DNA of 22,217 bases, taken from UHGV virus genome UHGV-0138564, one strand, 5' to 3'. The translations under genes were made by a program, and so were the position numbers. Origin of the DNA: a virus. The notes below the pieces were generated by a model that was not told where the DNA came from, did no database searches, and worked only from the letters and a program-made list of their open reading frames with translations. Shown piece by piece: positions 9,696-11,251 of this stretch (position 1 is its first letter; each line of letters begins with the position of its first letter).

Positions 9696-10148
9696 TTATA
9701 TGTGGGGTAATATCCAGTTTATTTTCCTCCAGGTACTTGCAAATGAAACTATTGATACGATCAGGGTCGAGAAACCATATAAGGTTAGGGCGAAATCAAG
9801 TCTTACAGAGGTAATGGTGATTTTTTCATTTATAAACATTGCTATCAGCGGGAAAATACATGCTAATATTAAGGTAACTCCCGTAGATAACAGGTTATGA
9901 ATAATTTTAGGTAAAATCTTGTTTTGTTTTAAAGCAAAAATAATTCCATCAGTACTTGAACTTGCAGAACTGAAGATGGAAATAGCGGCCAATACAAAAC
10001 CAAACAAAATGCCTGCCACCGTAGATAACACTCCGGCTGTACTTAAGATATCAGAGTGAGCCATAGGCGCTAGGTATTTCCCAAGCACCCAAGCTAACAG
10101 CCCACTGATAACTATGTTAATTAAAACTTTAATAAGCATAATCATCAT
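9696..10148 (-). CDS. Small integral membrane protein, about four predicted TM helices (150 aa)
   Basis: Hydrophobic segments (LINIVISGLLAWVLG, VAGILFGFVLAAISIF, GVTLILACIFPLIAMF, LYGFSTLIVSIVSFA); AT-rich; 14 bp downstream of the 310-aa gene on the same strand. Confidence 0.6.
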   Translation of the reverse strand: MMIMLIKVLINIVISGLLAWVLGKYLAPMAHSDILSTAGVLSTVAGILFGFVLAAISIFSSASSSTDGIIFALKQNKILPKIIHNLLSTGVTLILACIFPLIAMFINEKITITSVRLDFALTLYGFSTLIVSIVSFASTWRKINWILPHI

Positions 10149-10162
10149 CCTTAAAAATAAGA

Positions 10163-11095
10163 TCAGATTTCATATTGCTTTAAATACTGACCATGTTCAA
10201 TTTTAGCACTGATCAAGGCAGTACGCACATCTGTTTCTTTTGCGTAGCCATCTTTTGTGTTAATGTTTTTTTCACTGATCAGAACTTGATTGAGAAGACT
10301 CCTTGAATGAGTATTTTTAGGTTCAGTGACATTAGCTTTACGTAATAAGTGAGGAACTTTTTCTATTAATTCCTTTATTCCACTTTTTACTTCATCACTG
10401 AGATAACCACGGATTAATTTACGTTGCGATGCTCTACCTCTAAGTGATAGTTTTAAATGCGAACCGCCCATCCCAGCCATCATTTCAATCATACTTTTGG
10501 AAAATGAATTCGAAAGGTCATAATCCGTTGCGCTAAAATTACGTGGAGCGGCGAGTGTAATTTCACAGCTACGTAAAGTGCTTCCTGTTTCAAGTAGTTC
10601 TTTTACACTTTCTTTTTTCCAAATTGCCTCAAACGCTACAGGTTTGTTTTCTTCAGAAAAATTGAATAAAAGAAATGCTAAATCGGAAACTTTAGGTCCT
10701 AAATGATTTTGAGATAAAACAAGAATGTCTTTCTTATAGTAGTAAATAAAATAAGTGCGTTCGACTATATATTTTTTATCATCTAACGGAATATTGTGCT
10801 CATCCCAATTTTCATCACCAATATAAGGTAAGTGGAAACCATCACGAGAGCATGATAGATAACCAAAATAGAACTCCGCCTGTGCGTCTTTTTCTAAGAA
10901 TACAATCTTTAATTTTTTCTTATCAAACTCAGCGGTATAAGAATTTTGCGAAGGTGTAACAATGGTTGTATACATGTTGTCAAATGCAAGTTGTGCATTT
11001 GATGTAGTTGACTTCGTTCCTGAGGAGCTTTGGAAGAAACCGATACGCATTTTTTTTTGTTTAGTTAGTGGCGCGGAAGTGGCTGTAGTAGTCAT
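10163..11095 (-). CDS. Hypothetical soluble protein (310 aa), first gene of an AT-rich two-gene cassette
   Basis: Long ORF, Lys/Asn/Tyr-rich with AT-rich codon usage distinct from flanking phage genes; no catalytic motif recognisable by eye. Confidence 0.55.
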   Translation of the reverse strand: MTTTATSAPLTKQKKMRIGFFQSSSGTKSTTSNAQLAFDNMYTTIVTPSQNSYTAEFDKKKLKIVFLEKDAQAEFYFGYLSCSRDGFHLPYIGDENWDEHNIPLDDKKYIVERTYFIYYYKKDILVLSQNHLGPKVSDLAFLLFNFSEENKPVAFEAIWKKESVKELLETGSTLRSCEITLAAPRNFSATDYDLSNSFSKSMIEMMAGMGGSHLKLSLRGRASQRKLIRGYLSDEVKSGIKELIEKVPHLLRKANVTEPKNTHSRSLLNQVLISEKNINTKDGYAKETDVRTALISAKIEHGQYLKQYEI

Positions 11096-11251
11096 TAAAA
11101 TTACCCTTTATTATCCTTTTGAATCAATGGGTTGTGATTTGTTAATGATCCTAGGTTCGTTGCATATGCATAATCTATCAAAAAAAACTTACGCGGTCCG
11201 CATATTCTCGTTTACTGTGTTAAGAGTGGTTACTTCGCCACACAACTTAAA

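Follow-up and report, generated by a model that had tools for sequence, protein, structure and literature searches.

Organization of the locus

The DNA analysed here is the virus genome UHGV-0138564, a stretch of 22,217 nucleotides (nt) that is called the window below. This work concerns a cassette of two minus-strand genes, termed A and B, which lie between the antiterminator gene Q and the late genes and putatively encode an exclusion system of the lambda RexAB type. Gene A (10163-11095, minus strand) encodes a 310-amino-acid (aa) soluble RexA-like protein assigned to Pfam DUF6731 and to phrog_7651, a putative infection sensor and putative DNA-binding dimer. Gene B (minus strand, 9696-10148 as the longest open reading frame (ORF), 150 aa) encodes a protein with four transmembrane (TM) segments, assigned to phrog_8552, which is the RexB-like putative effector. 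The spacer between the stop codon of A and the B ORF (10149-10162, minus strand) was found by direct reading to hold an AAGG ribosome-binding site. This AAGG, at 10152-10149, abuts the first ATG of B, yet it stands 9 nt ahead of the third ATG at 10139. Because this spacing suits the third ATG and B is 147 aa long in RefSeq and in most homologues, B probably spans 9696-10139 and encodes 147 aa. A preliminary description of this DNA had reported two minus-strand genes 14 bp apart between Q and the plus-strand late genes, and the ORF list and RefSeq agreed with it; the gap is 14 bp to the longest B ORF and 23 bp if B begins at 10139. The two genes look like a single operon.

On the left, the cassette is bounded by the Q gene (9275-9652, plus strand), identified by Pfam Phage_antitermQ (E 3.7e-52) and by RefSeq. 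A hairpin with a perfect 11-bp stem (9667-9692, strand undefined), detected by the terminator scan and by direct reading, marks the left edge of the cassette. This hairpin, TAAGCAGGTG..CACCTGCTTA, lies exactly between the stop codons of the convergent Q and B genes. No good T-run was seen beside it on either strand by scan or direct reading; it is possibly a bidirectional transcription stop for Q and B, or an RNA-stability element.

On the right, the boundary is a conserved late-leader block (11171-11275, plus strand) with an intrinsic terminator (stem 11255-11267, then a T-run), and in phage Ayreon the counterpart of this site carries a terminator annotation. Similarity to phages of the same Q type restarts at about 11171-11180, and similarity to many other lambdoid phages at 11250, at the terminator. 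As the sequence common to lambdoid phages restarts only at 11171-11180, the cassette proper covers about 9653-11170. The preliminary description had therefore placed it correctly between Q and the late genes but had extended it too far, to 11250. Phages of the same Q type are conserved from the leader block onward, so the Q-dependent late promoter and the terminator probably lie within 11171-11275, and the cassette is probably located upstream of the late promoter and leader and not within the late transcript. A consensus scan and manual reading gave no convincing sigma-70 match for this promoter (pR') in 11096-11254 or just past Q. The region upstream of A (11096-11170, minus strand) is cassette-specific and is a candidate promoter region, in which the consensus scan placed a -35 element ATCACA at 11138-11133 and a -10 element GATAAT at 11115-11110 (minus strand, 9/12 matches).

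The G+C content was 0.32-0.37 over 9600-11200, compared with 0.53-0.57 upstream in the replication/Q region and 0.47-0.50 downstream in the late region, which confirms the AT-rich island noticed earlier. The pair lies about 4.6 kb from the gene for a cI-like repressor, outside the immunity region.

Conservation and linkage of the two genes

RefSeq annotates both A and B. Compared with a 95%-identical allele, the ratio of nonsynonymous to synonymous substitution (dN/dS) was about 0.13 for A and 0.04 for B. Among 95 relatives of A from IMG/VR, 80 loci were retained, and a B homologue was located directly 3' of A in all 80. From the RefSeq annotation, these homologous pairs and the low dN/dS, it follows that A and B are real genes under purifying selection and not chance ORFs. 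The B homologues were recovered as ORFs of 145-157 aa at 76 of the 80 loci, and 71 of those showed four predicted TM segments. The identity of A over these loci ranged from 44 to 100%, and in 72 of the 80 Q converged on B within 400 bp, even for alleles 44-49% identical to A.

In other branches of the family, nine loci (eight metagenome loci and a PM2-like Vibrio prophage) were inspected, and in each there was, just downstream of the A homologue, a gene for a four-TM protein of 144 to about 160 aa; the B partner at one of them, L017, is truncated after 71 aa by the contig end. The preliminary description had suggested looking for co-occurrence elsewhere, and the pair was together at all 80 viral loci and at these nine.

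In two metagenome contigs the gene caller misstranded or missed the B partner (L107 1447-1896 and L108 1087-1569, both plus strand). The plus-strand four-TM ORFs at these positions carry the family motif ..AGILFGFV.A.IS..S.AS.., and automated co-occurrence counts for the family are therefore underestimates.

Relation of protein A to RexA

Protein A has no hydrophobic segments, as expected for a soluble protein. It matched Pfam DUF6731 (PF20505) with 44 bits against a gathering cutoff of 27 (E 2.6e-11, residues 12-273), and RefSeq labels it 'DUF6731 family protein'. DUF6731, phrog_7651 for A and phrog_8552 for B are all of unknown function. Searches of Pfam, PADLOC, NCBIfam and the PDB (phmmer and profile) gave nothing past DUF6731 and PHROGs of unknown function. 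An ADP-ribosyltransferase identity was rejected, as the NCBIfam match (E 0.0035, against a cutoff of 500 bits) was judged to be chance.

A model of A was obtained with AlphaFold from 36 homologues, with a predicted local distance difference test score (pLDDT) of 82 and a predicted template-modelling score (pTM) of 0.65. When this model was compared with the PDB by Foldseek, lambda RexA (8TWQ chain B) was the sole match at E<=1e-3 (E 4.2e-7, probability 1.00), and RdgC ranked after it. RdgC, IML3 and CHL4 are the RexA-fold relatives named in the RexA structure paper (PMC11077077). The profile and structure checks on A that were proposed earlier thus gave only DUF6731 in Pfam, no PADLOC match, and RexA as the nearest fold. 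Global template-modelling scores of A against RexA were low (0.36-0.40) and the rigid superposition was partial, which the two hinged domains of RexA would fit.

A DUF6731 profile search of 1.84 billion representative proteins yielded 187 clusters at 50% identity, nearly all of 280-320 aa. From the representative-library search a broad A profile of 133 sequences was built, 120 of which score as DUF6731, and it was aligned by hhalign with a RexA-family profile of 30 sequences. The alignment had a probability of 94.4% and an E-value of 9.3e-8 over 254 columns, and was nearly full length (positions 14-294 of 303 against 2-272 of 284). Family-invariant residues coincided (A/RexA) at F20/F5, L89/L64, G133-P134/G109-P110, D138-L139/D114-L115, E156/E135 and R219.R221/K191.K193, the last pair being the LRGR/IKPK strand. 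Because the structure match, the profile-profile alignment and the coinciding invariant residues agree, we conclude from predicted structure and profile comparison that DUF6731 is a remote branch of the RexA family and that A is a true remote RexA homologue.

Relation of protein B to RexB

Protein B has four hydrophobic segments at about residues 2-23, 36-60, 85-107 and 119-140, and its AlphaFold model consists of four long helices (pLDDT 83), in line with the TM content expected in the preliminary description. The distribution of lysine and arginine (positive-inside rule) predicts that both termini and the central loop (residues 61-84) are cytoplasmic. The same topology was proposed for lambda RexB and for gp31 of phage Sbash (PMC6426596). 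The second TM segment (TM2) and the central loop are the most conserved portion of the B family, and in Sbash gp31 mutations in the central loop abolished defence (PMC6426596).

For profile comparison, genes adjoining diverged RexA genes were taken as RexB homologues, and the B family consisted of the relatives of the window's B together with partners of distant DUF6731 genes. The hhalign comparison of the two families gave E 1.6e-3 with all members and 1.3e-4 with the distant members, over 61-76 columns. In the controls, E was 0.2-0.65 for reversed alignments, and 60 local column shuffles all scored lower than the observed alignment. The 145-aa partner of a distant DUF6731 member (L018) matched the PADLOC RexB hidden Markov model (HMM) at E 5.9e-4; Pfam RexB (PF15968) matched none of eight B-family partner proteins, L018 included. 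These profile results suggest that B resembles RexB, a link that is weaker than that of A with RexA but consistent with it. The earlier statement that the pair has no similarity to RexAB held for pairwise and HMM-versus-sequence searches, which found none, whereas comparison of structures and of profiles points to homology of A with RexA and, more weakly, of B with RexB.

When the B model was compared with the viral structures of BFVD, the match ranked second (probability 0.99, E 0.056) was a 165-aa protein of mycobacteriophage Sbash, not confirmed as gp31; Sbash has the Rex-like gp30/gp31 pair (PMC6426596).

The sole Pfam hint for B was MotA_ExbB (E 0.13, residues 31-111), which was judged to be chance. 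A RexB homologue in Klebsiella phage ST101-KPC2phi6.1 is annotated as a 'biopolimer transporter'. RexB-like four-TM proteins may, very tentatively, be distantly related to the MotA/ExbB/TolQ proton channels.

Comparison with known systems

The organization of the pair is close to that of lambda RexAB. In both, the first gene encodes a soluble protein of about 280-310 aa and the next gene, on the same strand, a four-TM protein of about 145 aa (RexA 279 aa and RexB 144 aa in lambda, B 147-150 aa here), with a gap of 14-23 bp here and 15 bp in lambda. Each pair is carried by a prophage and stands apart from the lytic operons, and B has the size and predicted topology of RexB. The hydrophobic segments, the AlphaFold models and the lambda layout thus support the earlier comparison of a soluble protein of about 300 aa and a four-TM protein of about 150 aa with RexA and RexB. 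The sequence identity, by contrast, is about 10%, and A is about 30 residues longer than RexA. The rex genes are downstream of cI in the immunity region, whereas the present pair is between Q and the late leader. Expression from lambda pRM (or pLIT for rexB alone) cannot apply to such a pair, which would need a promoter of its own. The pair is not a member of lambda Rex in the strict sense, since it lies outside the immunity region and is matched by neither the Pfam nor the PADLOC models. It does have the structural, profile-level and organizational features of a Rex-type two-component system.

Sucellos (SclA/SclB), from cassette 68 of the V. cholerae superintegron, is described as structurally RexAB-like and goes unmatched by the Pfam Rex domains. 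It requires both of its genes, has its own promoter and is abortive, with early killing of infected cells (bioRxiv 10.1101/2024.07.02.601686). Its homologues are found mainly in enterobacterial prophages, 'often in Salmonella' (same preprint). By this published description the present cassette is alike in being a two-gene RexAB-like pair of enterobacterial prophages that escapes the Pfam Rex models, presumably with its own promoter, and the genera of the present family include Vibrio and Salmonella. From this comparison, which is by description only, the pair may be an E. coli prophage member of the Sucellos family. If SclA is DUF6731 and SclB belongs to the B family, the cassette is a Sucellos member and not a separate branch. 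Among the 20 family cluster representatives that were looked up, Aeromonas and Pseudoalteromonas names were found and no V. cholerae.

The P. putida prophage P1 pair RexABpp (PP_5643/PP_5644) combines a DNA-binding soluble protein with a four-TM partner, and both are needed for defence; overproduction of the RexA-like protein caused growth arrest and membrane damage that depended on the membrane protein (PMC12894663). By description this pair is alike in its soluble protein, four-TM partner and prophage origin. It differs in its larger proteins (RexApp-His6 37.5 kDa; a RexBpp substitution at residue 181) and in being preceded by a CI-like repressor. Sbash gp30/gp31 and Gordonia phage CarolAnn gp44/gp43 are prophage-expressed Rex-like pairs whose four-TM partner has an essential central cytoplasmic loop (PMC6426596, PMC6426606). 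They are different in being actinobacteriophage proteins said to carry a DUF4747 motif, and no DUF4747 match was found in the 133 DUF6731 members. Kiwa is also a two-gene defence operon with a small multi-pass protein (KwaA, four TM segments) and a soluble protein of about 300 aa (KwaB, DUF4868). This candidate was rejected, as there was no PADLOC match, no DUF4868 in A or the 133 family members and no Kiwa protein among the top structural matches, and the gene order is opposite.

A 2026 paper counts five described Rex-like systems (PMC12894663), to which Sucellos adds one. When the full texts of 7.7 million PubMed Central papers and 0.34 million bioRxiv preprints were searched, none was found to mention DUF6731. 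The term 'uncharacterised' used earlier is therefore correct for the DUF6731 family by name, but validated Rex-like pairs exist (PMC12894663; bioRxiv 10.1101/2024.07.02.601686). The Rex-like kind of system is already known, while the family of DUF6731 with a four-TM partner is not annotated as Rex-like. New here are the link of DUF6731 to RexA, the invariant four-TM partner, and the fixed and highly diversified slot beside Q.

Distribution and genomic slots

The exact cassette was present in 18 of 5426 complete E. coli genomes, and a DNA search with diverged alleles detected a family member in at least 96 of the 5426. The E. coli carriers include Shiga toxin-producing and carbapenemase-carrying clinical strains. 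Family members were also found in Vibrio, Aeromonas, Pseudoalteromonas and Salmonella.

Phages cdtI and vB_EcoS-733R5 carry the pair at the same place, with identities of 61-62% for A and 52-54% for B. In two deposited phage genomes, including vB_EcoS-733R5 (ON470608.1; L003 3995-4936), the A homologue is labelled 'portal (connector) protein', which looks like a misannotation of a DUF6731 homologue. Elsewhere the pair occupies different positions: beside the integrase of a Vibrio PM2-like prophage (39%/28% identity for A/B), after a CI-like S24 repressor (L018), and after Mor of a Mu-like element (L017). A third allele group (318 aa plus 145 aa; L024 5125-6531, E. coli M10 chromosome) follows the DNA-ejection genes that end a P22-like prophage, the place where P22 carries its superinfection-exclusion gene sieA. 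The pair thus moves as a unit among accessory slots of differing prophage types.

In sister prophages whose Q and late-leader flanks are the same, the Q-adjacent slot contains an unrelated single minus-strand gene. These genes encode a 339-aa protein (L022 2378-3397, minus strand; WP_000357056.1) and a 308-aa protein of phage mEp460_4F5 (L023 2488-3414, minus strand). Neither had a PADLOC match, and the sole Pfam match was a sub-threshold one of the 339-aa protein to FNIII-A_GpJ (E 0.0022). The slot acts like a hotspot for accessory or defence genes. As the identity of A spans 44-100% while Q adjacency is kept in 72 of 80 viral loci, the pair is, judged from its sequences, an old and diversified resident of the slot beside Q. 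The preliminary description had called it laterally acquired cargo; the unrelated minus-strand genes filling the slot in other prophages support the notion of cargo, but the pair is not a recent insertion.

A tblastn search with the Vibrio A homologue also located family members on two non-mobilizable E. coli records of a plasmid collection, NZ_CP104632.1 (100.9 kb) and CP054241.1. One of these two records is 834 kb long and is unlikely to be a true plasmid. The 100.9-kb NZ_CP104632.1 might be a phage-plasmid.

Proposed function and alternative explanations

We consider it probable that the cassette is a prophage-encoded two-gene exclusion (abortive-infection) system of the RexAB type, remotely homologous to lambda rexA-rexB and placed in a different slot. 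This interpretation draws on the two genes and their composition, pairing, purifying selection, slot and mobility, together with the predicted topology of B, the predicted fold of A and the profile homology of A with RexA. In lambda, RexA activated by infection triggers the RexB ion channel, so that membrane potential and ATP collapse and the infection is aborted (PMC12894663, PMC11077077). By homology with lambda RexAB, Sbash gp30/31, P. putida RexABpp and V. cholerae Sucellos we infer expression in the lysogen, interaction of A with B, channel activity and an exclusion phenotype, and the following course may be proposed. The pair would be expressed in the lysogen from its own promoter. A, with its RexA fold and probably as a DNA-binding dimer, would sense a product or a DNA-protein intermediate of the infecting phage and would then engage the central cytoplasmic loop of B. 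B, a four-TM protein of the inner membrane with its N and C termini inside, would oligomerise into a channel or pore. The resulting collapse of membrane potential and ATP would stop growth and leave the cycle of the infecting phage incomplete.

Several observations weigh against this interpretation. The RexA and RexB models of Pfam (PF15969 and PF15968) and PADLOC (2023) did not match A or B at E<=1, although the RexA models of these two collections matched lambda RexA at E 1e-97 and 9e-110 in the positive control. Enterobacterial A, as a single sequence or a narrow profile, stayed below significance against RexA, and only the 133-sequence profile succeeded. The lambda RexA DNA-binding residues R219 and K221, as well as the G140 hinge, are not conserved in the alignment with A. 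On the side of B, the similarity to RexB is confined to the first TM segment, TM2 and the loop after it. The B model had no match at E<=1e-3 among the viral structures of BFVD, where lambda RexB was outside the top 50. Small helical membrane proteins yield non-specific matches, which weakens the link of B with RexB. The cassette is not adjacent to cI, so lambda-style co-expression with the repressor is inapplicable, and the candidate promoter upstream of A is weak, as such sites were no more numerous than in shuffled sequence. In lambda too, the trigger and the role of RexA DNA binding in exclusion are unsettled (PMC11077077). The support comes from sequence and predicted structure, and exclusion by this pair is putative.

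The roles of the two proteins could be reversed, with A as a toxic or antiviral effector that B only anchors or sequesters until infection frees it. In what PMC12894663 relates of mycobacteriophage Butters, gp30 is the effector and gp31 is dispensable for defence, and in the present pair the partner that is larger and has diversified more is A (44-100% identity), as would be expected for whichever component meets the phage. However, the four other described Rex-like systems require both genes, and their effector is the membrane protein. Purifying selection acts more strongly on B (dN/dS 0.04) than on A (0.13), B was never lost over the 80 loci, and the conservation of TM2 and the central loop fits an active channel gated via this loop. 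We regard such a reversal as unlikely. A shared fold alone might also account for the similarity, A being an RdgC-like modulator of DNA binding or recombination that stands next to a small, unrelated membrane protein (such as a lysis or membrane accessory protein), with no defence role. RdgC and kinetochore proteins do have the same fold as A, no defence-database model matches A or B, and the evidence linking B to RexB is weak. Even so, this explanation seems very improbable to us.

Another explanation concerns the development of the prophage itself: A, as a DNA-binding protein, would modulate the shift from lysogeny to the lytic cycle or the Q-dependent late expression, B would modulate host proteolysis or the activity of A, with exclusion as a side effect. 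In lambda, and independently of RexB, RexA tips the CI/Cro switch towards the lytic state, and exclusion is possibly a by-product (PMC11077077); the present pair is also bound to one regulatory neighbourhood, beside Q in 72 of 80 viral loci despite divergence to 44%. Against this, the pair also resides in slots with no Q nearby, namely the end of the P22-like prophage, the PM2-like Vibrio element, the Mu-like element and the position downstream of a CI-like repressor. Sister prophages carry unrelated cargo in the Q-adjacent slot, which indicates that the pair is dispensable for the phage cycle, and low G+C content with reverse orientation is typical of accessory genes expressed in the lysogen (morons). 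A developmental role as the main function therefore appears improbable. Rather doubtful is a more far-reaching proposal, in which DUF6731 with its four-TM partner forms a large branch of the Rex superfamily that has gone unrecognised and is separate from Sucellos and RexABpp, and its adjacency to Q is functional: A would bind the Q-dependent late promoter or leader and couple late-gene firing, or its own induction, to exclusion. If A acted at the late promoter, the action of lambda RexA on the CI/Cro switch would have its counterpart at the late switch.

RexAB was the first abortive-infection system to be described, and what lambda RexA recognises has been an open question for 70 years. The diverged alleles in one prophage slot (44-100% identity, with Q conserved) form a natural series on what RexA-like sensors recognise. 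The RexAB-type interpretation provides a mechanistic hypothesis and a name for a Pfam domain of unknown function, DUF6731, with its 187 clusters. If it is true, RexAB is far more widespread than the 'five described systems' of PMC12894663. Defence annotation with PADLOC 2023 and the Pfam Rex models overlooks the pair at present. The prediction of host range for phage therapy in Enterobacterales is a further matter on which the pair bears.

Other features of the window and related prophages

Downstream of the cassette, the plus strand carries a 67-aa ORF, a DNA methylase gene (11749-12801), and then the holin and lysis genes. The annotation of an identical E. coli prophage in strain NJS001 lists Q, a hypothetical protein (147 aa), a DUF6731 family protein, a 67-aa ORF, DNA methyltransferase, holin, endolysin, Rz and terminase.

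The window opens within a frameshifted copy of the IS3-family element IS1203 (1-1163, corresponding to L004 1352-2564) near the integrase end of the prophage. At about 1790-2680 (plus strand; L004 3191-4081), a gene for a BRCT-domain protein is convergent with the cI-like XRE repressor gene, with an 18-bp overlap. By analogy with lambda, where rexAB has this position, the BRCT gene may be a further accessory gene expressed in the lysogen. Just past the lysis genes, at about 14174-14467 on the minus strand (L004 15575-15868), a lipoprotein gene, iss (increased serum survival, bor-like), is located on the opposite strand; iss/bor-like genes are classic accessory genes (morons) of lambdoid phages. 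In the late region of a related prophage with a cdtI-type allele (E. coli M505, L025 7809-8102), there is a gene with an Acb2/Tad1 domain (anti-CBASS/anti-Thoeris sponge), and the same phage lineage thus holds both the putative defence pair and a counter-defence gene.

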